Source: Acidobacteriota bacterium (GTDB lineage: Bacteria; Acidobacteriota; UBA890; WLXD01). From it: 64,000 nt of DNA. The DNA lies in the NCBI GenBank assembly GCA_965248695.1, contig CBDFKD010000002.1, positions 5,184,001 through 5,248,000 of the forward strand. The letters are read 5' to 3'. A program made the position numbers and the translations under genes. Numbering within the stretch: position 1 is the stretch's first letter; every line of letters starts with the position of its first letter. The notes under the pieces were generated by a model that was not told where the DNA came from, ran no database searches, and saw only the letters and a program-made list of their open reading frames with translations. Positions 4,988-38,499 of this stretch are shown piece after piece.

Positions 4988-5992
4988 ATGAGGCACTTCC
5001 GGCTGATCTGTGCCGACGTGCTGGAGGGCCTCGCCCGGTTACCCGACGAATCGGTCCACTGCGTGATAACGAGTCCGCCGTATTGGAGGCTGCGCGACTA
5101 CGGTACCGACGGCCAGCTCGGGCTGGAGGCCACGCCCGAAGAGTACGTGGAGACCATGACGGGCGTGTTCCGCGAGGTGCGCCGTGTGCTGCGCTCTGAC
5201 GGCACGCTGTGGCTGAACATGGGCGACTGCTACGCGAGCGGCGGGTACGGGGCACGAGATCCCGAGAGGTGGCCGGAGCAGAGCCGAAACAACCATATGC
5301 GGCACGCCAGGGCACCAAGCGGCGGCCTCAAGCCCAAGGATCTCGTCGGCATACCTTGGCGGGTCGCCTTAGCGCTACAGGCGGATGGCTGGTGGCTGCG
5401 AAGCGACATCATCTGGGCCAAGTCGCCACCGATGCCGGAATCGGTCAAGGACCGCCCCACGAAAGCGCACGAGTACGTCTTCCTGCTGTCGAAGTCCGCT
5501 CGCTACTGCTACGACGCAGATGCGGTTCGAACGCCCTATCGCCCTGCGACGCGGAGCGATTTGGTTGATGGCAGGTGGCGAAAATCCAACATCTCTGGGT
5601 GGGCAAATTCGCCGAACTTTCACGGGGCCAATCCGACTAGTAGGCCGCAGCGCCCTTGTCACCGCGGCGGCAAAGTCAAGCAAGGTGCGAACCTGCGCTC
5701 GGTCTGGACCATCTCGAATAGCGGCAAAGATGCGTTTCCCGAAGCGCACTTCGCAACCTTCCCGACCAAGCTCGTGGAGCCGTGTGTGCTGGCCGGCTGC
5801 CCCGAAGGCGGTGTCGTGCTTGACCCCTTCTGCGGCTCAGGCACCACGGGCGTCGTCGCACTCCGCGCAGACCGGCGCTTCGTGGGTATCGAGCTCAATG
5901 AGCAGTACGTGGAGATGGCGCGCCGCAGGATCGGAGATGACGCGCCGCTGCTGAACCGCGAGGACCCGATGCTCCTGGATCTAGCGGCATGA
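4988..5992 (+). CDS. DNA N4-cytosine/N6-adenine methyltransferase (beta class)
   Basis: Catalytic ITSPPYW motif precedes SAM-binding VLDPFCGSGTTG; HFATFP. Confidence 0.92.
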   Translation: MRHFRLICADVLEGLARLPDESVHCVITSPPYWRLRDYGTDGQLGLEATPEEYVETMTGVFREVRRVLRSDGTLWLNMGDCYASGGYGARDPERWPEQSRNNHMRHARAPSGGLKPKDLVGIPWRVALALQADGWWLRSDIIWAKSPPMPESVKDRPTKAHEYVFLLSKSARYCYDADAVRTPYRPATRSDLVDGRWRKSNISGWANSPNFHGANPTSRPQRPCHRGGKVKQGANLRSVWTISNSGKDAFPEAHFATFPTKLVEPCVLAGCPEGGVVLDPFCGSGTTGVVALRADRRFVGIELNEQYVEMARRRIGDDAPLLNREDPMLLDLAA

Positions 5993-6312: not shown

Positions 6313-7556
6313 CTCCAACGCCCCGCCGGATCGAGGATCTGCAGCCGGCGCCCTACAACCCGCGCACTATCGATGCCCCCTCGCTGGAGGCGCTGAAGGC
6401 ATCGCTGGGTACCTTCGGCGACCTCTCAGGTATCACCTTCAACGAGCGCACCGGGCACCTCGTTACGGGCCACCAGCGCGTGCGTGTGCTACGCGAACAG
6501 CACGGCGAGTCAGCGCGCATCCGTCACGCCGGCAAGGAAGCGTACCTACACGTGGGCTCCGAGCGGTTCCGGTTGCGCGTCGTGAACTGGGACGAGGAGA
6601 CGGAGCGCGCCGCGAACATCGCCGCCAACTCGCCCCTGCTCGCAGGCATCTTCACGGACGATCTACCCGACCTGGTGGCGCTGGCCCAAGAGGAGTTGCC
6701 GGAGCTGACCGATGCGCTCCGATTCGATGATCTGCTGGAAACGCTCGACATGGGACCGGAGCCCATCGAACTGCAAGATGACGAGGTGCCAGAGCCACCA
6801 GCCAACCCGGTGACCAAGCCCGGGGACGTATGGACACTGGGGGATCACCGGCTTATCTGTGGCGACGCGCAGGATCCTGGTGTCGTCGCCGCGCTGCTCG
6901 GCGATCATGTCCCGTTGCTCATGATCACCGATCCGCCCTACGGCGTGGAGTACGAGCCGGAATGGCGCGAACGTGATTTGGGAGAAAAACATGCGGGCCG
7001 GCGGTCCGGGATTGTACGCAACGACGATTGCGCCGACTGGCGAGAGGCGTTCACCCACTTTACCGGCGATGTCGCCTACGTATGGCACGCATCCTTGTTC
7101 GGTGCGGTCGTGCTCGAAGGGTTAGCGGCGGCGCGGTTGGGGCCTCGTGCCCAGATCATATGGGCCAAGCCGCAGGGCGTGATCTCACGTGGTCACTATC
7201 AATGGGCTCATGAGCCGGCCTGGTACGCGGTGCGCCGCGGCCGGAGCGCGCGCTGGAGCGGAGACCGGTGCCAAAGCACGCTCTGGCGCATCTCCAACCA
7301 GCTACGAGCCTCCGAAGGCAAGACGGACCACTCGACGCAAAAGCCGCTTGAGTGCATGGGCCGTCCGATGCGCAACCACGGCAAGGTCGGCGATGGGGTC
7401 TATGACCCGTTCGTGGGCTCGGGTACCACGCTCATCGCCGCCGAGCAGCTGGAGCGCCGCTGTTTCGCCATCGAGATCGACCCCGGCTACTGCGACGTAA
7501 CCGTCGAGCGCTGGGAAAACCTGACCGGCTCCAAGGCCAACCGGTGCACCCCGTGA
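6309..7556 (+). CDS. ParB-like N-terminal domain fused to DNA methyltransferase
   Basis: PAPYNPR and GHQRV (ParB-N); TDPPY, HSTQKP, YDPFVGSGTT. Confidence 0.9.
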   Translation: MTPTPRRIEDLQPAPYNPRTIDAPSLEALKASLGTFGDLSGITFNERTGHLVTGHQRVRVLREQHGESARIRHAGKEAYLHVGSERFRLRVVNWDEETERAANIAANSPLLAGIFTDDLPDLVALAQEELPELTDALRFDDLLETLDMGPEPIELQDDEVPEPPANPVTKPGDVWTLGDHRLICGDAQDPGVVAALLGDHVPLLMITDPPYGVEYEPEWRERDLGEKHAGRRSGIVRNDDCADWREAFTHFTGDVAYVWHASLFGAVVLEGLAAARLGPRAQIIWAKPQGVISRGHYQWAHEPAWYAVRRGRSARWSGDRCQSTLWRISNQLRASEGKTDHSTQKPLECMGRPMRNHGKVGDGVYDPFVGSGTTLIAAEQLERRCFAIEIDPGYCDVTVERWENLTGSKANRCTP

Positions 7557-19491: not shown

Positions 19492-22400
19492 GATGAGCCC
19501 GAAGCTGCAGGTCGCCGGCGAGCAGCTGCAGCAGACGGGCCGGTCCATGACCAGAGTCGGTGCCGGGCTGACGGCGGGGCTGACGTTGCCCATCGCTGGG
19601 GTTGGCATCGCGGCGATTAAGGCGGCGACCGACTTCAACAAGGGAATGGCCAACGTCGCCACGCTGATCCCCGGCAACACCGAGCGTGTCAAGGAGCTGA
19701 AGCGCTCGGTGCAGGACATGGCTGTAGCCACCGGCAAGAGCACGACCGACATCTCAGAAGGTCTGTATCAGGTCGTTTCCGCCTTCGGCGATACCGCCGA
19801 CACGGCGAAGATTCTCCAGACGAACGTCGAAGCCGCAGCAGCTGGCTTGGCCACCACGAGCGAGGCAATTGCGCTTACATCGGCCGTCACCAAAGCCTAC
19901 GGGGACACAAGCGCGGAGGCCGTACAGGCTGCTGCCGACATGGCGTTCGTGACCGTCAAGCTTGGCCAAACATCGTTTCCTGAGCTGGCTGCGTCTATCG
20001 GCAAGGTCGCGATCGGCGCCGCCGGCTTGAAGATCAGCCAGCAAGAACTGAACGCCGTGTTTGCCACGATGACAGGCGTAACCGGCGGCGCTGCGGAGGT
20101 GGCCACGCAGTTCCGCGGCGCGATGACCGGCCTGAAGAAACCGAGCGACGACATGATCGTCGCGCTCGACGAGATCGGTTTCTCAACAGAGGTGTACGGC
20201 GCTCGAGCAGGAGAGGCCGCAGTCGAGAGTCTCGGCTTTCAAGGCACGCTGGCAGCTCTAACGGAGGCCTCGGGCGGCAACGCAGCCGCGATGGCGAAGC
20301 TGTTCGGGTCAACCGAGAGCTGGGACTTCATCGCCGGCCTCGCAGGCTCGCAGGCCGAGACGTTCGGCAGCAAGTTGGGCGAGTTGGCCGAGTTCTCTGG
20401 TGCGGCAACCGAAGCGCTCAACGAGCAACAACGCGGCGTCAACGAGGCCGGCTTCCATTGGGAGGTGCTGAAGCAGAAGGTGGTCGTGGCTGCGCAGAAG
20501 TTCGGAGACGAGCTCTTGCCGATCGTGATGCGCGTCGGGGAGAGTTTGCGACCGTTGTTGGACATGGTGCTCCGGGGCGCGGAATGGTTCGGCAAGCTGC
20601 CGGTGCCGGTGCAGACGGCAGGGGTGATGTTAGCGGGGCTGGCGGCGGCGGCGGGGCCGGTGCTGATCGTGCTCGGAACGATGGCCTCCTCGATTGGAAC
20701 GCTACTGCCGCTGCTTACAGGAGCAGGTTTGGCGGGAGCGGCAAGCAGCGTCATTGCTGTCCTTACTGGCCCGGTGGGGTGGGTTCTGGCGATCGGCGCC
20801 GTGGTCAGTGCCCTCGGTTTTCTCGTGCTCAAGGTACAGGAATCGAATCGGATTCTCGAAGAACACAAGCGTCGGGCCGAAGAGATTTCGGAGGCGGCGC
20901 GCGACTACGAACGCGAGGCGCAGCTGCTTGCCGGCACCTTTCGCGGTGCTCTGAGTCAGGGGCTGGATGCGGCGCGTCAGGCGACCGATGAATATCTCGA
21001 CTCGCTGGAACTTGGCGCCGAAGGTGTCGTGGAGCTTTCCAGTGGCCTGCGGCTGCTGCTGAACGACAACAAGCTAACGAGAGAGCAGTTCAATGAGCTG
21101 TCCGGTGCGCTCGCCGAGTACCGGCAGCGGTCCAAGGATGCTGCTTTACAGCTACCAATTTTGAGTGCGGAACAGGATCGAGCTAGGGAGGCGGCAAGGC
21201 TTCTCGCAGAGGCGCTGGAGGGCTTCACGCTTGCCGAAGATGTTGCCAAGGATATCGACAAGCTGCGCCTAGCGGTCGAGTCCGCTGAAGCGCCGACCGT
21301 GCAGTTGGAGGCCGCTTGGAAGGACCTGGTAGCAAAGATGCAAGAGGCCGGATTGGAGATACCGGTCTCCATGAGCGCCATCGCCGACAGCCTCAATATC
21401 GTCGAGCGGAGCTTCGAGCGCGCCCGCGAGGAACAGGAAAAGCGATGGGACACAGCCAACCTCAAAGCGCTGAATGATGGATTCGACCAGCTCCAAACCG
21501 AGCTGCTTGAAGCCGAAAAAGCTGCGCTCCAAGCCGGGGAAGCGCTGAAGAATTTTGTTATCCAGCCGCCGGACCCGAGCACCATCCCACAAATCGATGC
21601 TGTCACCCTGGCGGCCGAGAGGCTCGGGCTTAAGGCGGTCAACGTCGAGGAGCTGAATAAGAGCTTTGCTGACCTGCAAGCCGTCGTTGCAGCTGGGGGC
21701 TTCGCCCCATCGGATCTGAAGCGCATCTACGACGATCTGTACCGGACGTTCCAACAGCTGGGGCCATTGACCGACGAGCAGGCCGCTGCATTTGAACGGC
21801 TCCGCGGGCAGATCGAGCAACAACCAAACCTGTCGTTTTTCGGCAAGATCGGCGATTCGCTCAAGTCCGTCTTTGGCAAGCTGGCAGAGCTGGGCTCGGT
21901 GTTCACCAACGCACTCGGGACGCTGTTCACGGATGGCTTAAGCGGCGCTCTAGGAGCTCTCCAAACCGGCCTGTCGCAGCTGCTGTCCAAGGCGTTCAAC
22001 AGCGTCATTCCGGGGTTGGGTACCTTGGCGGCACCGCTGATCTCGGCGATCGAGAACCTGCTCTCCGGCATGTTCGGCAAGGCCCACGCGGCCGATCACG
22101 TAGCCGAGCAGTTTGGCATCGCCCTGTCCGACGGGCTCGCCAAGGCCATCGACGACCTCGCCGCCAGTCAGTTCCAAGGCAACTTCGATGCGGCTTTCCG
22201 CTCGATGATGGCGCAGGCGATCCAAGAGGCTTCGATCACCACAGAGGCGGAGCTATCCAAGTGGGTCACGCTGACCCATCAGATCCTCTCGTCTGTGGAC
22301 GAGGGGTTCATGAGCCTGCAGCAGGCCGTCGAGTCGATGTCGGACTCCTGGTTGGCTCTGGTGCCCGCGATGGAGGCGACGGGAGCGTCGGCGATGGGCC

Positions 22401-24301
22401 TGCAGGCGCAGATATCGGATCTGATATCTCGGGGCGTTGACCTGGACACGCTCGCCACACAGCTGCAGCCTGTGATCTCGGCGATGTTCGATTCCGGCAT
22501 CTCCGGAGCGCAAGAGCTCGTGGACTGGCTCAACACCATGGGTGTGGAGATCGACGGCGTTGCCACGAGCGCCGAGGCCGCCGTCGCCGCCATCGAGGCC
22601 GCGTTCGGTGCCGGTGACTTCAGCGCCATGAGTACCGCGATCCGCGACGCGATCGCGGCGGGTGTTGATCTGTCGAGTCTACAAGGGCTGCTGACGGACG
22701 TGATGGCCCAGTACAAGGACCTGGTACTGGGAGCCTCCCAGGAAGTTGTCGCCGGGGTGGAGGCGCTGTTTGCCACCGTACGGCGAGAAGTCGAGGTGCT
22801 GGCCGAGGACGGCTCTACCCAGACCATCGAGCAGCTGCGGCTCACCAAGCGGGAGGCGGAGTTTGCCGCCTCGGCCCTGCTGGTCACCTTCGAGCAGATG
22901 CGTGCCGCTGGCGTGCCGCTCACAGAGATCTTCGAGGCCATGGGAGATCAGATCACCCAGTTGGCTGACAACTTCAAAGGCGCACTGCCCCCGGTGCTCG
23001 CCGAGGTGGACGCGCTGTTTTCGGCCATGCAGGGGAGCGCCGCCAAGGCGATCGAGAAGGTTGACGCCATCGGCGGCTCTATCGGCGCGCTGGGGGAAAT
23101 GGGCCTGCTGAGCGCCGGGCAGCTGGATTTCTTTGGCGACAAGATCGACCGCGCCTACGCCAAGCTCATCGAAGGCGGTGCGGGCTCGGAGCAAGCGATG
23201 GCGCTGCTTGGGCCGCAGCTGCGGCAGCTGATTGACCTGTCCGAGCAATACGGTTTCAAGATCGACCGCAACACCCGGGCGCTGATCGATCAGGCTGATG
23301 CGTCGGGTCTGCTTCCGCCAGCGATCGAGCCGGTCGAGGATATCTTCGGCGACATCCGCTCGGTGATCATCCTGTTGGCTGAGTCGCTCGGTGTGCAGGT
23401 ACCGGCAGCGATCAAGCAGGCAGCAGATGCGGCGCAAGAGGCTGAGAACCGGATCAAGAGCCCCTTCAAGCGCGCCTTCATGGAGATGGCCGCGGATGCC
23501 GGCTGGGCAGCGCGAGAGACGCGCGGGGTATGGAGACAGCTGTCGCCGGATCTGCGGCGCGTGTTCGAGGAGGGTGGTGAAGTTGGCCGCGCCCAGTTCA
23601 AACAAATCGCCATGGCCGCCGGGCTGAGCGCGGCACAGGTGCGGCAGCTGTGGGGCTCGGACATGCGCACCGTCGAAGACATCTTCGGCCACGCCGGAAC
23701 GACCGGCGAGGAGGAAAACGTCAAGGTGGGCGAGGCGGCCGAGCGCGAGGCGAAGCGGTCGGCGCGCGAGATGCGCATCGCATTCATCGACCGGGTCATC
23801 CCGGCGCTGCGCCGCATCGGACAGGTCGGTGAGATTGAGGCGAAGCGGCTGGGGGACGCGTTCGTGGGGGCGGCAAAGGACTCTGCGGCCGAGTGGGAAG
23901 CGACGCAGCGAGCCACCGTCGGTAACTCTTCGATTCTGGATATCTCACGACGCGGCATCGAAGCGGCCGAGGTGCTCGGTGGTAGTCAGGTCGAAGCGGC
24001 CATGCGTGCCGCGCACACCTGGAGCCTCGCCTCGGACACGATTGCCCGGTCGATGAACCGTACGGAATCAGCGGTTTCCGCGATTCCCTCGTCGGTGTCC
24101 GTGTCGGTGGGCACGGGGCCAAGGGATTCGATTCCCGCACCGGTCGCGGCTGCATCGGCCCCCGCACCATCCAGGCGCCCCGACGAGACGTTATTGCGCG
24201 AACTGCTCCATGAGCTCCGTGCGCTCCGGCAGGACCAGCGCACCTACTTGCCGGACGCGCTGCGCACCGCTGCCCGGCACGGGAAGCAGACGAGCAGCTG
24301 A
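19445..24301 (+). CDS. Tail tape measure protein (TP901 family)
   Basis: 1618 aa, Ala/Gly-rich and helical; LT.GLTLPI.G.G.AA.K...DF and TVKLGQTSF.ELA motifs. Confidence 0.95.
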   Translation: MIPIGVLEAILRLRDEMSPKLQVAGEQLQQTGRSMTRVGAGLTAGLTLPIAGVGIAAIKAATDFNKGMANVATLIPGNTERVKELKRSVQDMAVATGKSTTDISEGLYQVVSAFGDTADTAKILQTNVEAAAAGLATTSEAIALTSAVTKAYGDTSAEAVQAAADMAFVTVKLGQTSFPELAASIGKVAIGAAGLKISQQELNAVFATMTGVTGGAAEVATQFRGAMTGLKKPSDDMIVALDEIGFSTEVYGARAGEAAVESLGFQGTLAALTEASGGNAAAMAKLFGSTESWDFIAGLAGSQAETFGSKLGELAEFSGAATEALNEQQRGVNEAGFHWEVLKQKVVVAAQKFGDELLPIVMRVGESLRPLLDMVLRGAEWFGKLPVPVQTAGVMLAGLAAAAGPVLIVLGTMASSIGTLLPLLTGAGLAGAASSVIAVLTGPVGWVLAIGAVVSALGFLVLKVQESNRILEEHKRRAEEISEAARDYEREAQLLAGTFRGALSQGLDAARQATDEYLDSLELGAEGVVELSSGLRLLLNDNKLTREQFNELSGALAEYRQRSKDAALQLPILSAEQDRAREAARLLAEALEGFTLAEDVAKDIDKLRLAVESAEAPTVQLEAAWKDLVAKMQEAGLEIPVSMSAIADSLNIVERSFERAREEQEKRWDTANLKALNDGFDQLQTELLEAEKAALQAGEALKNFVIQPPDPSTIPQIDAVTLAAERLGLKAVNVEELNKSFADLQAVVAAGGFAPSDLKRIYDDLYRTFQQLGPLTDEQAAAFERLRGQIEQQPNLSFFGKIGDSLKSVFGKLAELGSVFTNALGTLFTDGLSGALGALQTGLSQLLSKAFNSVIPGLGTLAAPLISAIENLLSGMFGKAHAADHVAEQFGIALSDGLAKAIDDLAASQFQGNFDAAFRSMMAQAIQEASITTEAELSKWVTLTHQILSSVDEGFMSLQQAVESMSDSWLALVPAMEATGASAMGLQAQISDLISRGVDLDTLATQLQPVISAMFDSGISGAQELVDWLNTMGVEIDGVATSAEAAVAAIEAAFGAGDFSAMSTAIRDAIAAGVDLSSLQGLLTDVMAQYKDLVLGASQEVVAGVEALFATVRREVEVLAEDGSTQTIEQLRLTKREAEFAASALLVTFEQMRAAGVPLTEIFEAMGDQITQLADNFKGALPPVLAEVDALFSAMQGSAAKAIEKVDAIGGSIGALGEMGLLSAGQLDFFGDKIDRAYAKLIEGGAGSEQAMALLGPQLRQLIDLSEQYGFKIDRNTRALIDQADASGLLPPAIEPVEDIFGDIRSVIILLAESLGVQVPAAIKQAADAAQEAENRIKSPFKRAFMEMAADAGWAARETRGVWRQLSPDLRRVFEEGGEVGRAQFKQIAMAAGLSAAQVRQLWGSDMRTVEDIFGHAGTTGEEENVKVGEAAEREAKRSAREMRIAFIDRVIPALRRIGQVGEIEAKRLGDAFVGAAKDSAAEWEATQRATVGNSSILDISRRGIEAAEVLGGSQVEAAMRAAHTWSLASDTIARSMNRTESAVSAIPSSVSVSVGTGPRDSIPAPVAAASAPAPSRRPDETLLRELLHELRALRQDQRTYLPDALRTAARHGKQTSS

Positions 24302-25848
24302 TGGCGGAGGTGGCGATGGAGTTTTACCTGTCAGGATCCTGGAGGGACGTGAGCGTCGACGTGCTCGCTGCCCACCCGATCAGCTGGCAGCGCGGCATTC
24401 CCGGCTCCGGGCCGCAAGATCTGATCGGGCAGCCGGGTCGCATGAACTGGGTGATGAACAACGGCAACAACTCCGGCGGTGTTGCCGGCTACTACTCACC
24501 CGGGCACGCCAGCGTGCGGACCGGGTTCAAGCACGGTATGCGTGTACGGCTGACGATCGATGCAGGCAACGACTCCGCCGGCAACAACGTCAGCCGCACC
24601 GTGTTCGCCGGCAAGCTCAAGGAGGCCAACCCGATACCGGGCGCCTACACGGTGCACGAAACACACTGCATCGCCTGTGACTGGCTGGAGGACCTGGCGG
24701 ATCTGAAGGACGTGCGCCTGAGCCTACGGGAAAACGTTCGCTCCGATCAGTTAATCGATGACCTCGTGGCGCTAGTGGCCATGGCGCCGACCAGCAAGAG
24801 CCTCGATGTGGGCATCGACACCTACACGTTCGCCTTTGACGATCTCGGGGACAAAGATCCCAGCCCGATGTCGCTGGCGCACGCCATCTGCATGAGCGAA
24901 CGGGGCTACCTGTATGTGCGGGGTAACACGACCGATGGCGAGACGCTGCGGTTCGAAAACCGTCACGCGCGCGCCACCAAGAGCCTGGATTTGACGCTCA
25001 CCGCCTCGCAGGTGCGCGACATCCGCGTGCCTTCGGCCATGGATCGGATCTACAACCACGTCGAAGCGACGGCCCACCCGCGCAACAAGGGCAGCACCAT
25101 CATCGTGCTCGTGAGCCTGGATGAAGAGATCGAACTCCGATCTGGACAGACCGTTGAACTGTTCGTCGCCTACACCGATCCGAACAACAAGGACGCCCGT
25201 ATAGGTGGCGCCAACATGGTCGCACCGGTATCGGGTACTGATTACACGGCCCGTGACGCCGCCAACGGTGGGGGGAGTCTCATCACCTCCCAGTTTGACC
25301 TATCCGACACGGAGTTTCAGGGCTCCGGGTGCAATATCGTGGCCACCAATAACGCCGACAAAACAGGCTACCTGCGAGGCCCCGGCACCAGCCCAGGCAT
25401 GCAGATACGGGGCAAGCCGCTGTATCGGTACTCGCCCGTATCGCAGCGCGGCAAAGGCTCCACCGACAGCATCACCGACTACGGAGAGCGGTGGTTGCGC
25501 ATCGACATGCCCTACCAGGACAACGTTCTGGTGGCGCAAGACGTAGCGAACTTCACCGCCAACGTCTATGACGGGATCCTCAACACGCCGACCGAAGTGT
25601 CACCAATGACCGAGAGGCCTGCTCTGTTGGTGTCCTGTCTGCCGGTGGATATTGGCTCGCGCATCAAGGTGACCGAGGCGCAGTCCGGGGTGGATGGCGC
25701 GGAGGTGTTCATCAACGGCGTCCGCGGTCGGGTGCTCAACAAGACGGTGAGCTTGGAGTGGATTGTGGCCCCGGCTGATACGACCGCCGTGTTCATTCTG
25801 GATGATCCGGTGGCCGGGATCCTGGACGCCAACGCACTGGGGTACTGA
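24301..25848 (+). CDS. Tail tip/hub protein
   Basis: Follows the tape measure gene; beta-rich; C-terminal FILDD...GILD...LGY. Confidence 0.7.
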   Translation: MAEVAMEFYLSGSWRDVSVDVLAAHPISWQRGIPGSGPQDLIGQPGRMNWVMNNGNNSGGVAGYYSPGHASVRTGFKHGMRVRLTIDAGNDSAGNNVSRTVFAGKLKEANPIPGAYTVHETHCIACDWLEDLADLKDVRLSLRENVRSDQLIDDLVALVAMAPTSKSLDVGIDTYTFAFDDLGDKDPSPMSLAHAICMSERGYLYVRGNTTDGETLRFENRHARATKSLDLTLTASQVRDIRVPSAMDRIYNHVEATAHPRNKGSTIIVLVSLDEEIELRSGQTVELFVAYTDPNNKDARIGGANMVAPVSGTDYTARDAANGGGSLITSQFDLSDTEFQGSGCNIVATNNADKTGYLRGPGTSPGMQIRGKPLYRYSPVSQRGKGSTDSITDYGERWLRIDMPYQDNVLVAQDVANFTANVYDGILNTPTEVSPMTERPALLVSCLPVDIGSRIKVTEAQSGVDGAEVFINGVRGRVLNKTVSLEWIVAPADTTAVFILDDPVAGILDANALGY

Positions 25849-26243
25849 TGATGCACCGCTACATACTGGGCATTCGGGACCAGCACTTGGTCGTTGACGA
25901 GACCAGGTTGCTTGCCAAGCTCGACCAACAGGTCGCCAAGTCACAGCGTCTGGGAGCGCGCATCCAGGTGCACCCGGAGGGCGAGGAGATTGTGGCGTAC
26001 TGCAACCACGGCCGCTGGGTGGCGGACTGCCCGTGCGGCGGGGGCGTGGCGGTGGAGCCGGAGTTTGACAAGGCAGCCTGCTTCGGGTGCGGGGCGGTGT
26101 ACTCGTCAGTCCGGTTCCCTCGGCACCGTGACCAGATCGAGCGACAGCTGCTGAAGCGTCCCCGGATGGACAACCGCAACTGGGAGCCGGGCGAGACGGT
26201 ACGGCAGCTGCGTCGGGACAACCGCAGCCGGGGGATCAGGTAG
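25848..26243 (+). CDS. Cys-rich hypothetical tail-region protein
   Basis: NHGRWVADCPC..C.GC, RNW.PGET. Confidence 0.65.
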   Translation: MMHRYILGIRDQHLVVDETRLLAKLDQQVAKSQRLGARIQVHPEGEEIVAYCNHGRWVADCPCGGGVAVEPEFDKAACFGCGAVYSSVRFPRHRDQIERQLLKRPRMDNRNWEPGETVRQLRRDNRSRGIR

Positions 26244-27491
26244 ATGGCCTGGACGACTCCCAAGACATTCGTGGCCGGTGCCGTGCTGACGGCGGCGGAG
26301 CTGAACACGCATATGCGTGACAACCTGAACCATCTGTTCGACAGCATCGACGATGTCGGCACGCTCTTCAACATCGCCTCCAAGACGGCTGCCTACACCG
26401 CCACCACCGCCGACACGGTACTGCTGTGCGATGCCTCCTCGGGTGCCTTCACTCTCACGCTGCCGGCAGCCTCGGGCAACGCTGGGCTGTACTACCTGAT
26501 CAAGAAGATCGACTCCTCCGCCAACGCCATCACCATCGATGCCAACGGCTCAGAGACCATCGATGGGGCCACGACCTACGTGTCGGAGATGGAGGATCAA
26601 GCGGTACTGATCGTTTGCGATGGCTCCAACTGGGAGACGCTATCGCACACCGCCAACAGTCTGCTGAACGTGGTCTCCAAGACCAGCGCCTATACGGCCT
26701 CGGCCACCGTAGACCAGGTGATCTTGTGCGATGCTTCTTCGGCAGCTTTCACCCTCACGCTGCCAGCCGCTTCGAGCAACGCCGGGGTGTACCTGTACAT
26801 CAAAAAGATCGACTCCTCCGCCAACGCGGTGACGATCGATGGCAATGCCTCAGAGACCATCGATGGGGCCACCACGTTCGTGGTGAACTACGAGGATCAG
26901 GCCGTTGTCCTCGCGTGCGACGGGACCAACTGGGAGACGCTAGCGCGGACCAGCACGCCGGTCTCCGCAATGGCCTTGATCGCCGCGGCGACGCCAGCCA
27001 GCGGAACGATCTCGATGAGCTCCCTCACCACCACCGACTACGACGCGCTGTGGCTGGTGGTTACGGGTCTGGAGTCCGATACCGATCAGGATGAAGTAGA
27101 GATGCAGCTCAATGCCACCACCGCGGGCTACCACTATGCGGACGAGATCGTCAGCGAGACGACCATCGAGCAATCCTTCGGCGCCGGCAACGCCGGCTCG
27201 ATCAAGCTGCTGTCCAATAGCGTCGGGGCCCGGAGGCTGGGCAATGCCGCCGATGAGGGGGCGTTCTTTTCGGTCTGGATCGACAACGACCACCACGCCA
27301 ACGAGTTTCTGGTGTTTTACCAAGGCTCCTATGTGGACGCTGACGGCAGGCTCTGGTCCTCGCTCGGCGGCAGCGGCTGGGTGGATCTGGGCACCGCCAC
27401 CTCGATCACGCAGATTGACATCAAGGCCACCACGGGCAACCTGGATGCAGGCACAGCACGTTTGTACGGGCTCCGAAAGGCGGCGGCATGA
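26244..27491 (+). CDS. Tail fibre/receptor-binding protein with two tandem ~90-aa repeats
   Basis: MAWTTP.T..AG.VLTAA..N..RDN N-terminus; repeats at ~26378-26642 and ~26675-26942. Confidence 0.75.
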   Translation: MAWTTPKTFVAGAVLTAAELNTHMRDNLNHLFDSIDDVGTLFNIASKTAAYTATTADTVLLCDASSGAFTLTLPAASGNAGLYYLIKKIDSSANAITIDANGSETIDGATTYVSEMEDQAVLIVCDGSNWETLSHTANSLLNVVSKTSAYTASATVDQVILCDASSAAFTLTLPAASSNAGVYLYIKKIDSSANAVTIDGNASETIDGATTFVVNYEDQAVVLACDGTNWETLARTSTPVSAMALIAAATPASGTISMSSLTTTDYDALWLVVTGLESDTDQDEVEMQLNATTAGYHYADEIVSETTIEQSFGAGNAGSIKLLSNSVGARRLGNAADEGAFFSVWIDNDHHANEFLVFYQGSYVDADGRLWSSLGGSGWVDLGTATSITQIDIKATTGNLDAGTARLYGLRKAAA

Positions 27492-27916
27492 ACTACAAGC
27501 TCCTGGTGCGGGATGAGGACGGAGAGATCCTGGCCTCAAGGCGCGCACCGAAACAGCCGGATGGCTCCTATGAAGGGCAGCCCCTGGACTACGTCGCGCC
27601 CAACGATCCGAAGGCCGTGCGCTACGGCATCGACGAGGTTGTGGCCACGGACGTGTGGACGGGCTCCGGCGCCCTGCGCTCCGGCTACTCGGTGGTTGTG
27701 ATCGACTCCGCAGTGCACCCGAAGATGACAGCGCACAAGGTGCTGGAGGGGCAGCTGGTGGACAAGAGTGCCTCGGAGCGGGAGGCTTCGGAGCGGGCCT
27801 CCAAGCCGGCCGAGGAGCGCCGGCGCGAGGATGCGCTCGCGTGGCTGGCAGAAAACCCCGATGCGTTGGTGCCCGCCTCACGAGTGTTGCAGTTGATGGG
27901 GCAGGCGGATGCATGA
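27488..27916 (+). CDS. Hypothetical protein (possible fibre chaperone)
   Basis: ATGA-coupled to the fibre gene. Confidence 0.55.
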   Translation: MNYKLLVRDEDGEILASRRAPKQPDGSYEGQPLDYVAPNDPKAVRYGIDEVVATDVWTGSGALRSGYSVVVIDSAVHPKMTAHKVLEGQLVDKSASEREASERASKPAEERRREDALAWLAENPDALVPASRVLQLMGQADA

Positions 27917-28130
27917 GGGGGTCGCGCAGCTGGACTACGAGGCTCTGGAGCGGCTGTATTGGCAGCTACCGGAGCCGATGCGGAGCCAGTTTCAGCAGCA
28001 ACCGTGCATCCAGAAGGTACGGTGCCCACAGTGCCAGAGTCGACTGCTTGATCTACGAGGTAGCATCGCGCACATTAAGTGCAGGTGCGGCAAGGTCCAC
28101 AAGCTGGGCCGGCTGAGCCTGACAATCTAA
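27909..28130 (+). CDS. Com-family zinc-finger regulator
   Basis: VRCPQCQSRLL...IKCRCGKV pattern resembles Mu Com. Confidence 0.7.
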   Translation: MHEGVAQLDYEALERLYWQLPEPMRSQFQQQPCIQKVRCPQCQSRLLDLRGSIAHIKCRCGKVHKLGRLSLTI

Positions 28131-33161: not shown

Positions 33162-33610
33162 GGAGAAGATGGGCGTTGACGGTACCTTATCACGATACTG
33201 TGATGCTGCGAGTTGACGGCGCTTTCGGCGACTCACCTGGCGGGCAGCGATTATCACGGGCCATCCGGCGGGTATCGGGCGCACCCCCCAGTTCCTCCCC
33301 CACCGTAGAAAACACCGTGCGGCCCTTCGAAAAGGCCGCCCGGCGCTTGCGGGCACGTCGAAGCCCCTCAGCTTCGCGCGGCGGGAAAGATAGCACGCGA
33401 GAAGATCGCCGGCACTTCAGCTGCCTGCCAGCAGATGCGGCGCCAGGCATGGCACAGGTGCTCGCGGCCAAAAAGCGGTCTTGATGAGCAACCAAAAGAG
33501 CGGCCGGAGGAGGTATCGTAGCGAACGTACCGTTCCGACCGCTCTTTCGTTCTTCGTGTACCGGGTGGTGGTGGGCTGGTGCCGGCTCCGGGCTTCCTAT
33601 CTACGGGTCA

Positions 33611-33635
33611 CGGGTTCGATCCCCGCCACCTCCAC
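33611..33635 (+). other. Fragment resembling a tmRNA/tRNA 3' end
   Basis: CGGGTTCGATCCCCGCCACCTCCAC; no matching 5' half found. Confidence 0.5.
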
Positions 33636-34251: not shown

Positions 34252-34551
34252 TTACCCCAACACCACTAGAGTATCGATCGTTGTCCCTAGCGCTCTAGCA
34301 ATGCGGGACAGCGCGGCTGTAGAGCCGGGCTTGAGCCCACGTTCGATCTCAGACAGATATCCTGTAGCGATGCCCGTCTTGGCGGTGAGGTCGCGCACTG
34401 TGATGCCGTAGTGGGCGCGGAATGCAACGATTGGGCGTTCACCCTCCATAATGGCAAGTGCCACCTCGTGCGGGATACGGCTCCCATCATCTGCCTCGAG
34501 TGCGGCTAACCGATCCTCAAGTTCTTCCTTGCTGGCAACAAGGGCATCGTG
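34252..34551 (-). pseudogene. 5'-truncated XRE HTH antitoxin
   Basis: EELEDRLAA...IPHEVALAIMEGERPI.AFR...GYLSEIERG; in-frame TAA just upstream and no start codon for the N-terminal part. Confidence 0.65.
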
Positions 34552-34722
34552 AATTTATTGCAATTCATAATTTCTGGATAATTTGCAGTTGCTTCTGCAG
34601 TTCACCTGTACTGAACGAAGACGAAGTGATCGACCAGTACGGCATCGCGCCCGAGCGGGAACACCAGAAAGGCCGCCTGCGGCTGATCAGCTTACGAGAG
34701 GCGTCTGCCTGAGAAGAAAGGT

Positions 34723-34807
34723 GCCATCGTGGCGAAATCGGCAAACGCACCCGGTTTGCGACCGGGCGGCTGTCTAGGCCTTGTGGGTTCGAGTCCCACC
34801 GATGGCA
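34723..34807 (+). tRNA. tRNA with TGC (Ala) anticodon on a Leu-type body
   Basis: Acceptor GCCATCG/CGATGGC, D-arm GCG/CGC, anticodon stem CCCGG/CCGGG with loop TTTGCGA, long variable arm, T-arm GTGGG-TTCGAGT-CCCAC, A73. Confidence 0.9.
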
Positions 34808-34879
34808 CCTAAAGTACCTCCAGCAGCATCGAACCGTAGCCGCCGTGCCGCCACGATGGCGAATGTTACTTGTAACAGT

Positions 34880-35035
34880 ATGGCGCAACGTGACACAGAC
34901 CGTAAGGAACCGTCGAAGCCCGGCCCTGATGCCGAGCGGCTGAAGATCGACGACGATCCCGAGGAAGCCCTACAGCGGCTCCTGAAGAACGCCCCCGCGC
35001 CAGAAGAACCGCGACCGCCCCGTCGACCGCGTTGA
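34880..35035 (+). CDS. Small hypothetical protein
   Basis: 51-codon ATG ORF (RLKIDDDPEEALQRLL). Confidence 0.4.
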   Translation: MAQRDTDRKEPSKPGPDAERLKIDDDPEEALQRLLKNAPAPEEPRPPRRPR

Positions 35036-35305
35036 CTGACAACAGCCGGTATTCAGCGACCGTCGCCACCCTCAGCAGATTTCAACAGGTACATACTCCC
35101 GAATACCTTTGAACAAAATATCGGGTGGCCCTCGTTTCTTCGATAGGCCACCCGAAGAAGTCCCGTAGCTCAGGGACACCCGTCTCACGTGCCCCCTAGG
35201 TTAGCACAAGCGAAGCGCTCCACAGCGCCGGTTTTGAGATAACGAACCAAAGGTGGTCGTCGTGAATGCCGGTCGTGTCGTGAAAGCTGTCGCCGGCCTC
35301 AACAA

Positions 35306-35788: not shown

Positions 35789-36391
35789 ATGGTTCTAGGC
35801 TCTGACAGGTTGTGGGAAACGGCGTTTAGGGGACTCATGGACCCGAAATTGCTTGTCGAAAGGTACCAGTACTTATCCAGGAAGCGACGCGAGATCGAGG
35901 GGAAGATGGCGGCCCTGGCGGAAATGCAGCAAGTCTTAGGGGTGGAATTGGACGACGTAAACGACCAGCGCGCCATGCTTTGGCTTCAGCTCGATCGACA
36001 GGCTCTGCTTGATCGTGACGATATCCGCGAGTATCTCGGTGACGCCACGAAGCCGCCTGGCATCAAGCGCGTGCGTGCCGAACAGGTAGACCGAGACTTG
36101 ATGAGATACCTGGCCAATCAAGATGGTCGGGAATGGCGCGTCCGGGACATCCTCACGCACAAGAACGCCATGCGGCTCGGCCATATGTCTGATAGCGGTG
36201 TTCGGGCGGCGATTAACCGCGCCATCGAGCGCGGCGAACTGGAGAAGACTGGCGGATGGGGGATCGTTCGCGTATCGGACCGAGGTAAGGAGTCTTACGG
36301 TCTTGATGCCGAGGCTGACTTGGAAGAACAAGACATGGACCTGGCCGAGAAAGAGGCCATGGAAAAGGAGAAGGCTAGGCCACCGTTCTGA
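35789..36391 (+). CDS. Hypothetical protein (possible winged-helix C-terminal domain)
   Basis: 200-aa ORF after an AT-rich promoter-like region. Confidence 0.6.
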   Translation: MVLGSDRLWETAFRGLMDPKLLVERYQYLSRKRREIEGKMAALAEMQQVLGVELDDVNDQRAMLWLQLDRQALLDRDDIREYLGDATKPPGIKRVRAEQVDRDLMRYLANQDGREWRVRDILTHKNAMRLGHMSDSGVRAAINRAIERGELEKTGGWGIVRVSDRGKESYGLDAEADLEEQDMDLAEKEAMEKEKARPPF

Positions 36392-36442
36392 ACAAAGAGC
36401 CCGCCGCTGCGGTAACAGCGACGGGCTCCGACAACTTGTGAT

Positions 36443-36517
36443 GGCCTCGTGGACAACAGACGGTCAAGTCGCGGGACTGGAAATCCCGAGATCCCGGTTC
36501 GACACCGGGCGGGGCCT
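36443..36517 (+). tRNA. tRNA with GGA (Ser) anticodon on a Cys-type body
   Basis: Acceptor GGCCTCG/CGGGGCC, anticodon stem CGGGA/TCCCG with loop CTGGAAA, 4-nt variable loop, T-arm CCCGG-TTCGACA-CCGGG, T73. Confidence 0.85.
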
Positions 36518-36748
36518 CACCTTTCTCCCCTGACAGCAAGGAGGGTCAGATGATAGCGCGAGCACCACCGTCAGCGCATCCCTGAACGCCGAAGGGGCCG
36601 GGGTGCGTCTCACGATGCTCCCCGGCCACCTATAAGTCGCCCGGCCCGCTGCACGAACAGCGAACCGGGCTAGATCCAAGACGCGGGCATAGGCCGCATC
36701 GGACCCTCACAGCCATTGTGGTCCTGCCCGCCATCCGGAGCAAGACCG

Positions 36749-37585
36749 ATGGCGAACGTACTGGCCCCCGAGAAGAAGCGCATGATCATCGCCGCCCTGG
36801 TGGAGGGCAACAGCATCCGCAGCATCGAGCGCATGACCGGCTGTCACCGAGACACGATCTGCCGGCTGCTCGTGCGGGTAGGTGAAGGCTGCGAAGCCAT
36901 GATGCGCGAGCGGTTCACCGGTTTGCGCCTTGACGATCTCCAGGTCGATGAAATCTGGACCTACGTCCAGAAGAAGCAGGCCACGGTGATCAGGTCCGGC
37001 AAGCGCGTGAATCCCAAGCATGGTGATCAATGGGTTTTCGTCGCGCTCGATGCCGAAACGAAGTTGGTGCCGCATTGGATCGTCGGCAAGCGCGACGGCT
37101 ACAACTCCTACCAGATGATCTCGGAGCTGGCCCGTAGGATCGACGGGCCGTTCCAACTGACCACGGACGCTTTCGCTGGCTACAAGGCCGCTCTCGGAGT
37201 CGTGGCGGCTCGTGGTATCGACTACGCACAGCAGACCAAGAGCTATACGGCCACGAATCCATCCTTCGGACGTTACTCACCACCAAGGGTCAGCCACTGC
37301 ACAACTCAGGTTGTGGCCGGAGATCCAGATCCGGAGGCGATCTCCACGAGCTACGTCGAGCGTCAGAACCTGACCATGCGGATGAGTATGCGACGGTTCA
37401 CCCGGCTGACGAACGGCTTCTCAAAGTCGCTGCGCAACCTGGAAGCCGCTGTGTCGCTGCACTTCGCCTGGTACAACTTCGTGCGGATTCACGACAGCCT
37501 GCGGAGCACGCCGGCCGTTGTGGCCGAAGTAGTTAGTACCGAGTTGGCGATGGACGACCTGCTGGCCTTCGAGGCGGGCTACTAA
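36749..37585 (+). CDS. IS1-family DDE transposase
   Basis: LVEGNSIRSIERMTG, QVDEIWTYV.KK, TTDAF, YVERQNLTMRM.MRRFTRLTNGFSK, YNFVRIH. Confidence 0.9.
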   Translation: MANVLAPEKKRMIIAALVEGNSIRSIERMTGCHRDTICRLLVRVGEGCEAMMRERFTGLRLDDLQVDEIWTYVQKKQATVIRSGKRVNPKHGDQWVFVALDAETKLVPHWIVGKRDGYNSYQMISELARRIDGPFQLTTDAFAGYKAALGVVAARGIDYAQQTKSYTATNPSFGRYSPPRVSHCTTQVVAGDPDPEAISTSYVERQNLTMRMSMRRFTRLTNGFSKSLRNLEAAVSLHFAWYNFVRIHDSLRSTPAVVAEVVSTELAMDDLLAFEAGY

Positions 37586-37698
37586 TGCTCGGTGATTTCC
37601 ACAGGATATCCACAACGGGTGGCGCTCCTGTTGATGATGACCCCCAACATGTTGTGGTCGTGATGTTGACCACGGGACTTCCCGCAGGCTACAACAAC

Positions 37699-37729
37699 AA
37701 AGACCCGACGGGTTCACCGTCGGGCCTTT
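37699..37729. terminator. Possible bidirectional terminator hairpin
   Basis: AAAGACCCGACGG-GTTCA-CCGTCGGGCCTTT. Confidence 0.5.
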
Positions 37730-37879
37730 GACCAAACCAGTTGTCACCCGGCGTAGGCGCGCCGGGACTTTGATGCTCTGTCGGAGCATAGGCCGCTCTG
37801 ACCTTGAGCGTCAAGTCGCACCCGGTGCGTCTGTCGGGTGGCAACGCAGCGCCCGCATTATGCGGGAGGAGTAACTGCA

Positions 37880-38035
37880 ATGCCAACTACAGGCAAGACT
37901 GCCACCACGTCCGGGATCTACCGGGCCAGCGACTGCGGCTACGAAATCGCCCTCAGCCGAGGGGAACGATTTCCACCGTGTCCGATGCATCGGCGTGCTG
38001 TGACGTGGACTCTGGTGAGGGCGACGAAGCACTAA
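37880..38035 (+). CDS. Small YjzC-like zinc-ribbon protein
   Basis: GGAGGAG RBS; TG...SGIY...C...GERFPPC. Confidence 0.6.
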   Translation: MPTTGKTATTSGIYRASDCGYEIALSRGERFPPCPMHRRAVTWTLVRATKH

Positions 38036-38399
38036 CGTAGCCCGACACCGCATCACTGTTGTAACCGAAGAGGTGCCCCATTACCCAATCGGGGCACCTC
38101 TTCCTCGTCTCCAAGAGAGCTTCTAGGGCGTAGGCGTGACGATATACGCCTAGCGCCCACTGGCCGCGTTCGACCTCCAAGAGGAACCCGCTGATCGGCA
38201 GCGATAGCGAGGACAAGAGAGTCTGTAGCTCGCTGGCGAACGCGGGCAAGTCTTCGCTCGCGATGTTGCGCGCTCCGACCTCGGCAATGGGTTTACCACC
38301 CCAAGCTACCCATTCGGCATACGCCGAAATCCGGCCCGCTTCGTAGTCGGTGATCATTTTTTTGAGATCACTCCGATCCGGCGCGCTGTCGCCCTCCAT
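37953..38399 (-). CDS. Hypothetical protein
   Basis: Protein-like ORF (GKP.A, W..G.LFGY); 3' end overlaps the neighbouring gene. Confidence 0.5.
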   Translation of the reverse strand: MEGDSAPDRSDLKKMITDYEAGRISAYAEWVAWGGKPIAEVGARNIASEDLPAFASELQTLLSSLSLPISGFLLEVERGQWALGVYRHAYALEALLETRKRCPDWVMGHLFGYNSDAVSGYVSASSPSPESTSQHADASDTVEIVPLG

Positions 38400-38499
38400 T
38401 AGGCTAACAGGCACAAACGCTCCTCGAAACGGCCAGCAAAATCCGTACCAAACTGACTTTCAGTGACTTTCATAATGGGACACTACCCATACGAGATCA

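Follow-up and report, generated by a model that had tools for sequence, protein, structure and literature searches.

What is a tRNA with the body of a leucine tRNA and the anticodon of an alanine tRNA doing in an acidobacterial chromosome? The question is raised by a gene at positions 34723-34807 of the 64,000-nucleotide stretch of DNA analysed here (the window, C2:5184001-5248000), which is part of contig CBDFKD010000002.1 (C2) in assembly GCA_965248695.1 of an Acidobacteriota bacterium (genome G000; 5.89 Mb, 65% G+C). A first-pass annotation, made from the letters alone, had read the gene as a possible source of alanine-to-leucine mistranslation. We find that the tRNA gene is intact and under purifying selection, that it is cargo of an IS1595-family transposon with a DDE transposase, and that what the window holds is a remnant of this transposon, without transposase and with an internal deletion. 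The interpretation given in that annotation is borne out in part, and the finding is larger than it had it: a family of transposons whose cargo is class II tRNAs with switched anticodons.

A leucine-type tRNA with an alanine anticodon

34723-34807, forward strand: class II tRNA with leucine-type body and anticodon UGC (direct reading, ARAGORN, Rfam, profiles)

ARAGORN calls an 87-nt tRNA-Ala(tgc) at 34723-34809, and the Rfam tRNA model matches 34723-34807 with 58.2 bits (E 8.7e-11; gathering score 29). On direct reading, everything that had been said of the structure (cloverleaf, long variable arm, A73, G37, C3:G70, anticodon TGC) holds. All stems of the 7/5 cloverleaf are Watson-Crick: an acceptor stem GCCATCG/CGATGGC with seven of seven such pairs and C:G at 3:70, a D stem of 3 bp (GCG/CGC) closing an 11-nt D loop, an anticodon stem CCCGG/CCGGG with the loop TTTGCGA (anticodon at 34757-34759, G at position 37), a variable arm of 16 nt and a T stem GTGGG/CCCAC. 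A73, at 34807, is followed by CC and then by T, so that CCA is incompletely encoded, as the annotation had remarked; this is the usual state in G000, where CCA is encoded in only about 9 of 59 ARAGORN tRNA calls. A proposed extension of the acceptor stem by pairing of the leader AGGT (34719-34722) with ACCT (34807-34810) is possible in the window, where the two are complementary, but it is not a conserved feature, since a comparison of flanks shows the 4-bp helix in only about 3 of 9 distinct homologues. An error of sequencing in the anticodon, for which a check had been suggested, is ruled out: G000 holds a second, identical copy of the tRNA (C2:1586595-1586681), homologues keep TGC, and contigs from four runs of three studies all read TGC at 34757-34759, with no alternative letter.

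In its body the tRNA is a leucine tRNA. It is 74% identical to the Leu(UAG) tRNA of a genome of the same order and 61-69% identical to the five Leu tRNAs of G000 itself, with 43-51% identity to Ser and Tyr tRNAs. The isotype comparison that the annotation had called for, run with home-made nhmmer profiles rather than tRNAscan-SE and trained on small sets of ordinary tRNAs (Leu n=12, Ser n=5, Ala n=3, Tyr n=1), gave 36.2 bits for Leu, 11.7 for Ser and 3.0 for Ala, and no match for Tyr. The D arm has the length of that of the G000 Leu(UAA) tRNA, from which it differs at 2 of 18 bases, and a T precedes the T stem. Leucine tRNAs share a tertiary set consisting of A14, A15 with U48, and a particular G18G19 spacing, and the window tRNA has this set together with a Leu-type D arm. 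The discriminator A73 is an identity rule for leucyl-tRNA synthetase (LeuRS) from work in E. coli, and it is present in every homologue whose 3' end was read. A leucine anticodon (NAG or YAA) is the part that is missing, UGC standing in its place.

Of the marks of tRNA-Ala, by contrast, the tRNA has the anticodon and neither of the others. The short variable loop of a class I tRNA is absent (the three true Ala tRNAs of G000, with UGC, CGC and GGC, are 74-75 nt long), and so, as had been claimed, is G3:U70, a pair that is strictly conserved for tRNA-Ala (PMC7609411). Position 3:70 is C:G in the window and, among 20 aligned homologues, C:G in 12, G:C in 6, A:U in one, U:A in one and G:U in none. 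Above family cut-offs G000 encodes one bacterial-type LeuRS and one alanyl-tRNA synthetase (AlaRS); no dedicated paralogue of either was found in the genome above those cut-offs, and neither synthetase is encoded in the element described below. LeuRS, AlaRS and seryl-tRNA synthetase belong to the synthetases for which the anticodon is not a recognition element (PMC11028032).

Conservation of the tRNA and of its anticodon

Is such a gene maintained, or is it a relic? An IUPAC pattern that joins the Leu-type D arm to the UGC anticodon matched 59 stretches in species-representative genomes. Twenty-one of these loci, at 20 distinct places, are 82-90-nt tRNAs called Ala(tgc) by ARAGORN, and the places are spread over Acidobacteriota, Planctomycetota, Alphaproteobacteria, Bacteroidota, Chloroflexota, Gemmatimonadota, Desulfobacterota, Myxococcota, Sumerlaeota and Bacillota. 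Another 32 matches were excluded because they share non-tRNA sequence after CTTGC and have no ARAGORN call there; our tentative reading is that in these a group I intron interrupts tRNA-Leu(UAA). Four of these excluded loci gave no intron with Rfam at gathering level, and a permissive threshold brought out Intron_gpI at one excluded locus (26 bits, E 1.2e-4; gathering score 50). The remaining six (L037, L047, L051, L062, L063 and L069) are fragments or variants without an ARAGORN call and stand outside all counts and alignments, and L019, L036, L049 and L067, which have poor acceptor stems, were left out of the alignment of 20 tRNAs.

In that alignment 97.5% of 399 stem cells are paired, a fraction that falls to 40-48% in slid controls, and both-sided changes occur in 17 of the 20 stem pairs, a count reached by none of 500 shuffles. 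The acceptor/T branch has 7 + 5 bp in the window tRNA and in the aligned homologues. Intact stems had already been taken to argue against simple decay, and the pairing together with the compensatory changes bears this out. Positions 33-36 (TTGC) are invariant, while 32, 37, 38 and the stems vary; as 15 of the 20 aligned sequences came from a pattern in which D arm and anticodon are preset, this invariance needs an independent sample.

An anticodon-blind sample was obtained with a profile of a 51-aa open reading frame (ORF) that lies downstream of the tRNA, compared with 401 genomes of the window's phylum. Strong matches were found in G000 (two loci), G002, G171, G200 (two loci) and G398. All five strong loci outside G000 have a UGC tRNA of about 88 nt directly upstream on the same strand; three weak matches have none. 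The anticodon loops at these loci read TTTGCAA, TTTGCAT, CTTGCAC or TTTGCAC, and because UGC is kept at five of five loci while the stems differ, it is the anticodon itself that is conserved. The annotation had asked for homologues that keep UGC, and these are such homologues. A genome of another genus of the same family (G007) retains the first 63 nt of the tRNA, anticodon included, at 99% identity.

The tRNA also occurs in metagenomes, where a T32 version of the pattern gave 33 stretches, 26 of them with an ARAGORN-called long UGC tRNA. An IS1595 transposase homologue (31-67% identity) lies on 14 of the 33 contigs, many of which are only 1-3 kb long, and the strict motif of the 51-aa ORF is present in six of the stretches. 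Metagenome contigs searched for the 51-aa ORF itself gave 246 peptide-pattern stretches, of which tblastn confirmed none. In viral contigs the same tRNA pattern matched one stretch (L083), decayed and without an ARAGORN call, and a phage origin of the tRNA was rejected on this result.

Some homologues have other tRNAs nearby. In a Gemmatimonadales locus (L026), Leu-type tRNAs with CAC (Val) and UGC anticodons and nearly identical bodies lie at 2399-2484 and 5280-5365 among ordinary neighbours, and in a Dehalococcoidia locus (L021) Leu-type class II tRNAs with GCC (Gly) and UGC lie at 6659-6747 and 7323-7411, also among ordinary neighbours. On one metagenome contig (L131, 2309-2486) a short spacer separates the UGC tRNA from a downstream G-1/GGU tRNA that resembles the published tRNA1, and on another (L113, 2607-2804) an 82-nt Ile(tat) tRNA stands 30 nt ahead of the UGC tRNA. 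A comparison of run X4 with window 34706-34785 showed the window form in that sample together with contigs that carry the truncated 63-nt form of the G007 type and its flanks; more than one carrier seems to be present there.

A transposon that carries the tRNA

What moves the gene? When the ORFs around the matches were compared all against all, a single common neighbour emerged, 310-340 aa long and at most 2 kb from the tRNA at 7 of 22 distinct places. This neighbour is a transposase, the G000 copy matching the Pfam families DDE_Tnp_IS1595 (PF12762, E 2.9e-39) and Zn_ribbon_IS1595 (PF12760, E 5.7e-11). In G000 it belongs to an intact element, which holds the second copy of the tRNA:

G000, C2:1583617-1586971: intact element, 3355 bp, with inverted repeats and target duplication
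From C2:1583617: left inverted repeat, 22 nt, CGGGAGTATGTACCTGTTGAAA
C2:1583737-1584687, reverse strand: transposase (Pfam IS1595)
C2:1585352-1586584, forward strand: RmrA-like gene of 410 aa with HTH_3 and Peptidase_M78 domains (Pfam, PADLOC)
C2:1586595-1586681, forward strand: tRNA copy, 10 nt past the stop codon of the RmrA-like gene
Downstream of the tRNA: 51-aa ORF with conserved motif
Up to C2:1586971: right inverted repeat, 22 nt

Members of the IS1595 family make an 8-bp target duplication, and the intact element is flanked by an 8-bp direct repeat, AATAACTT. It thus has all the marks of the family: a DDE_Tnp domain with an N-terminal zinc ribbon, inverted repeats and the duplication. 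Three observations indicate that it moves as one piece. A genome of the same genus (G003) has the empty site, in which the 600-bp left and right flanks adjoin and overlap by exactly 8 bp; in G200 two related copies agree at every base (100% identity) as far as the end of the inverted repeat and diverge beyond it; and a contig of 3648 nt, from a run of a different study, has the intact form at another site and departs from the window exactly after 35101. Given the empty site, the copy boundaries in G200 and the point of divergence of the contig, the tRNA is mobile with the transposon and has been so recently.

Of the other parts of the element, the 51-aa ORF has the motif KPGP..ERL.I..DPEEAL..LL, and its protein sequence is conserved while the codons differ synonymously from copy to copy; neither this ORF nor the coiled-coil ORFs that occur near the tRNA in relatives has a Pfam match below E 0.01 or a PADLOC match. 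The three genes of the transposon are not enriched in GCA (4 of 26, 5 of 35 and 0 of 5 Ala codons), which counters the idea that the tRNA serves the codon usage of the transposon itself. To the right of the intact element, at C2:1587710-1587860, lies a repeat of about 150 bp that has some 48 copies on both contigs (75-99% identity) and looks like a miniature inverted-repeat transposable element.

Transposase homologues (E <= 1e-30) occur in 75 of the 401 genomes of the phylum. The four closest places (G002, two in G200, and G171; 63-70% identity) all have the UGC tRNA. In 17 further neighbourhoods (38-54% identity, ±3.5 kb), 14 have no tRNA and one has an ordinary tRNA-Pro 3 kb off; the other two have a class II tRNA beside the transposase. 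One of the two (L091 1703-3625, genome G266) is a complete IS1595-like element of 1.9 kb with perfect 26-nt inverted repeats, which contains a transposase, an 88-nt tRNA with the anticodon UGG (Pro) and a 129-aa ORF; its tRNA scores 26.9 bits as Ser against 9.5 as Leu, and has G73, an encoded CCA and C55. The second (L088 3204-3290, genome G180) is an 87-nt tRNA with the anticodon UUA (ochre stop) that scores 27.6 bits as Leu against 17.2 as Ser; an IS1595 transposase gene has its 3' end 262 nt away, a tmRNA-like 3' end stands about 150 nt further on, and no clear inverted repeats were found around the tRNA. Related elements, then, hold only Leu- and Ser-type bodies with foreign anticodons, as would be expected if decoding matters, because such bodies keep their amino acid after a change of anticodon.

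The window copy

What the window holds is what remains of a further copy of this element:

34550-34608: 59-bp piece, without mismatch to the stretch just upstream of the transposase start (C2:1584709-1584767; blastn in both directions)
34608-34712, forward strand: 3' stump of the RmrA-like gene (helix-turn-helix and Peptidase_M78), stop codon TGA at 34710-34712
34880-35035, forward strand: conserved 51-aa ORF, found in the insertion sequence subgroup and also in the tRNA-less relative G383
35080-35101: right terminal inverted repeat, TTTCAACAGGTACATACTCCCG, with the contig divergence directly after 35101

From 34608 to 35112 the window is 99.4% identical (blastn) to C2:1586480-1586982 of the intact element. 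The piece at 34550-34608 marks the left break, to the left of which there is unrelated repeated DNA, and contigs have loose ends at 34550 and at 34608. A deletion has removed 1.7 kb, including most of the peptidase gene, and blastn against the genome with a reciprocal search found no transposase in the window copy.

The gene upstream of the tRNA

Could the gene ahead of the tRNA say what the tRNA is for? In the intact copy its product matches the PADLOC model of RmrA (E 2.1e-55, residues 51-383) as well as Pfam HTH_3 and Peptidase_M78, and the upstream gene in G002 also matches RmrA (E 3.5e-53); in both genomes the RmrA models are covered over nearly their whole length, and there is a weaker match to capP. 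RmrA, a helix-turn-helix protein with an ImmA-like zinc-peptidase, is the antitoxin of RosmerTA systems (PMC10440598; bioRxiv 10.1101/2022.05.11.491447), and antitoxins of this type partner many unrelated toxins (PMC10440598). Downstream of the RmrA-like gene inside the element there is just the tRNA and the 51-aa ORF, which is without PADLOC or Pfam match. The likeness to RosmerTA lies in the upstream gene, of the same helix-turn-helix and ImmA-like zinc-peptidase type; the difference is that in the element no recognised protein toxin follows it, the charged 51-aa ORF being found without RmrA as well. The protein reads equally well as an ImmA-like regulator of the divergent transposase gene, and for that reason we do not class the locus as RosmerTA. 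The RmrA-like gene gives the idea of a toxic or defence function some context, and no proof.

In relatives the place ahead of the tRNA is taken by other genes: a family of coiled-coil proteins in L014, L024, L032 and G171, a gene with a weak DUF5343 match in G200 (E 2.2e-5, under the curated cut-off), and a protein without recognised family in L042 and G398.

Possible function and alternatives

We propose the following sequence of events. The tRNA would be transcribed, possibly jointly with the upstream gene, processed by RNase P, given its CCA and leucylated by the single bacterial-type LeuRS of the cell, which would ignore the anticodon. The leucylated tRNA would then compete with genuine tRNA-Ala at GCA and GCG, perhaps at all GCN codons, and put leucine in place of alanine. 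As a payload it may be kept under the adjacent regulator, RmrA-like here and other small regulators in relatives. Judged from sequence features, we give charging by LeuRS and decoding of GCA/GCG as leucine an even chance. Its most likely role would be that of a harmful or stress-inducing transposon payload, an RNA toxin or an addiction or stress module, and not of a housekeeping tRNA. In 2349 long ORFs of G000, 11.6% of all codons specify alanine (per 1000 codons, GCA 11.2, GCG 43.9, GCC 49.8 and GCT 10.7), so that strong expression would be very harmful and the tRNA would have to be weakly expressed, inefficient or tightly controlled. It is tempting to go further and to suppose that IS1595-type transposons spread Leu and Ser class II tRNAs with UGC, UGG and UUA anticodons, in which the tRNA is the toxic effector of an RNA module, restrained by a regulator and released by stress or phage to scramble the proteome; we regard this wider scheme as speculative and rather improbable.

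Several observations weigh against mistranslation by a regulated payload. Among the sequencing runs listed for the stretch there was no RNA run. The window copy itself is without its upstream gene and may be silent, and no sigma-70-like promoter was seen near the tRNA in a scan of the intact copy, a kind of scan that is weak for this phylum; its one site lies beyond the right end of the element, with 0.8 expected by chance. The upstream gene varies among relatives, so that a fixed toxin-antitoxin pair is at most a possibility. A relative with 53% transposase identity (G383) has the 51-aa ORF and an inverted repeat and no tRNA; the ORF is therefore a feature of the insertion sequence subgroup, to which the tRNA was added as a passenger dispensable for transposition. 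In other phyla at least 10 UGC/Leu-type tRNAs have no transposon around them and an ordinary chromosomal context, and no shared partner gene was found beside those at L016, L021, L026, L041 and L070, where the neighbours are ordinary metabolic and membrane genes. In the tRNAs themselves, a subclade (4 of the 20 aligned, and many further sequences) replaces U55 of the T loop by C, which few elongator tRNAs do, and the tRNA of G002 has two unpaired positions atop the acceptor stem and nearly tied scores against the Leu and Ser profiles (20.1-21.3). Irregular acidobacterial tRNAs described earlier were partly charged, but E. coli did not translate with them (PMC5389517). Finally, the identity rules applied here for LeuRS come from model bacteria and may not be those of this phylum.

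One alternative is a functional RNA that is not a decoder: a signal for processing by RNase P or RNase Z that sets the flanking messages apart or stabilises them, an RNA bound by proteins of the element, a charged RNA acting off the ribosome, or a titrator of LeuRS or of modification enzymes. We consider this somewhat unlikely, although it is the alternative to be taken most seriously. It fits the irregular tRNAs that are charged and, in E. coli, left unused by the ribosome, for which regulatory roles and links to toxin-antitoxin systems have been proposed (PMC5389517), and the compact arrangement of the intact copy, where the tRNA begins 10 nt past the upstream stop codon and ends about 70 nt ahead of the 51-aa ORF, with no terminator-like site between. 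The C55 variants agree with it, as does the polycistron-like tandem of a UGC tRNA with the irregular G-1/GGU tRNA at L131. Against it, covariation keeps the full canonical tRNA architecture and not one hairpin alone, the anticodon stays invariant amid variable loop neighbours, and the confinement of related elements to Leu and Ser, identities that are blind to the anticodon, is a prediction of mis-sense by decoding.

That the tRNA is a neutral hitchhiker or pseudogene, a captured Leu tRNA whose anticodon has mutated and whose window copy is inert debris, we hold to be improbable. The window copy does lie among broken pieces of mobile DNA, some copies are truncated or decayed (the 63-nt form in G007, L037, L047, L051 and the viral contig L083), and the element can do without the tRNA, as in G383. 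Yet neutral drift sits badly with compensatory changes that reach 17 of the 20 stem pairs in different genera and phyla under an invariant anticodon, or with UGC at every one of the five anticodon-blind homologues; a change from a UAG-type Leu anticodon to UGC takes two substitutions, and the result has been retained where the transposases are only 57-70% identical.

Far less credible is charging with alanine, or with another amino acid by a non-canonical route, such that the tRNA would supplement the decoding of GCA and GCG: the anticodon loop is like that of the G000 tRNA-Ala(UGC) in U32, U33, UGC and A38, and AlaX-like paralogues exist in G000, but G3:U70 is found in none of the 20 homologues, the Ala profile gives just 3.0 bits, the transposon genes show no GCA enrichment and G000 has no extra AlaRS. 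Hardly worth entertaining is a tRNA gene that acts as DNA, as an integrase att site or an insertion sequence target, since the inverted repeats enclose the gene, which travels with the element, and selection is on RNA pairing rather than on DNA sequence, for all that tRNA/tmRNA fragments of the integration-scar type occur nearby (33564-33635) and elsewhere in G000.

Surroundings of the window copy

From 30 to 42 kb the window is a patchwork of repeats shared within the genome, among them an SLT transglycosylase, XRE-type regulators and another DDE transposase. The stretch 22067-28040 is 98% identical to C2:1-5976, and many pieces between 28 and 48 kb match C2:2.74-2.79 Mb, C2:1.39-1.40 Mb and C1:1-16 kb, in the manner of a mosaic of mobile DNA.

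There are further tRNA-like sequences in this region and in the genome. A tRNA-like gene of class I, 76 nt long, lies at 36443-36518 (forward strand) and scores 50.2 bits with the Rfam tRNA model; it has GGA, a Ser anticodon, together with U73 and an unusual D loop, and fits none of the isotype profiles (Ala 7.1, Ser 5.9 bits). An identical copy is found at G000 C1:1975-2050, and the gene is part of a 2.56-kb repeat (35932-38489, 99.96% to C1) that includes a DDE transposase at 36716-37585. Other oddities of G000 are a Ser(gga) of 75 nt at C2:2238653, which differs from this gene but also has U73, and, at C2:1401818, a malformed Ser(cga).

At 33564-33635 (forward strand) ARAGORN calls a 72-nt Arg(cct), where Rfam recognises only the ends of tmRNA, in the acceptor and T arm (18.1 bits, E 4.5e-4); this resembles a fragment of a tmRNA or tRNA end and may be an integration scar. 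Two ARAGORN calls, at C2:92021-92109 and C2:3177552-3177645, have the 3' parts of the Leu(caa) at 89822 and of the Met at 3669783, respectively, and two selenocysteine calls, at C2:4678307-4678404 and C2:5559422-5559519, share their 3' parts with each other. The four are probably duplicated tRNA ends from integrated elements.

Comparison with known systems

How much of this is new? Natural tRNAs that break the code are few, the cases being tRNAProX, the CUG tRNAs of yeasts and the allo-tRNAs, and to our knowledge none lies inside a defined, recently active transposon. If the tRNA described here is charged with leucine and used, mistranslation of a sense codon would be a horizontally mobile trait with a clear vehicle, the tRNA would be a natural missense suppressor of Leu identity for GCN codons, and it might be the first tRNA to serve as the harmful partner of an antitoxin-type regulator. 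Even without decoding, a conserved, canonical tRNA that is retained by a DDE transposon needs explaining.

The nearest counterparts are the allo-tRNAs and irregular tRNA polycistrons of Acidobacteria, for which roles as missense or nonsense suppressors or as regulators have been proposed, and which occur near toxin-antitoxin and transposon-related genes (PMC5389517). They share with the window tRNA the long variable arm, an anticodon at odds with the identity, and the phylum, and locus L131 links a UGC tRNA directly to one that resembles tRNA1. They differ in structure and identity: allo-tRNAs have a 12-bp acceptor/T branch divided 8/4 or 9/3, a long D stem with tetraloop like that of tRNA-Sec, and Ser, Ala or His identity, whereas the window tRNA has a 7/5 branch and a Leu-type D arm, with neither the 8/4 or 9/3 branch nor the long D stem. 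The terms tRNALeu, LeuRS and UGC do not occur in the main text of PMC5389517, nor does that text describe carriage in a defined IS1595 transposon, though its Supplementary Figures S5-S6 may show related tRNAs.

Another parallel is tRNAProX of Streptomyces and Kitasatospora, which combines Pro identity with the anticodons of other amino acids, Ala included, for deliberate mistranslation (PMC11415595; PMC10404621), and which stands as the bacterial case in a 2024 review of mistranslating tRNAs (PMC11415595). There as here, a natural bacterial family joins one identity to foreign anticodons. In distinction from the window tRNA, however, tRNAProX is class I and of Pro identity; the tRNA described here has Leu identity and a transposon as its carrier, and no dedicated synthetase for it was found in G000. 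Such a synthetase serves tRNAProX, in the form of a prolyl-tRNA synthetase (ProRS) paralogue, ProRSx. In yeast and human cells anticodon variants of tRNA-Leu mistranslate (PMC11028032), by the same principle that LeuRS ignores the anticodon, but these are point variants or engineered tRNAs and not a mobile bacterial family.

As to the vehicle, the suppressor tRNAs of phages likewise are tRNAs of mobile elements that change the meaning of a codon; they read stop codons used by phage genes, whereas here the codon is a sense codon and the carrier a transposon. Some members of the IS1595 family, reportedly described by Siguier, Gagnevin and Chandler in 2009, have passenger genes. The element described here shares with the family the zinc-ribbon DDE transposase, the inverted repeats, the 8-bp duplication and the room for passengers; we know of no IS1595 member with a tRNA among them. 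A full-text literature search found neither a Leu-type tRNA with an Ala anticodon in bacteria nor a tRNA passenger of IS1595. Natural tRNAs in which identity and anticodon are mismatched are thus a known class, and what is new here is the Leu identity, the conserved Ala anticodon and a recently active DDE transposon as the vehicle.

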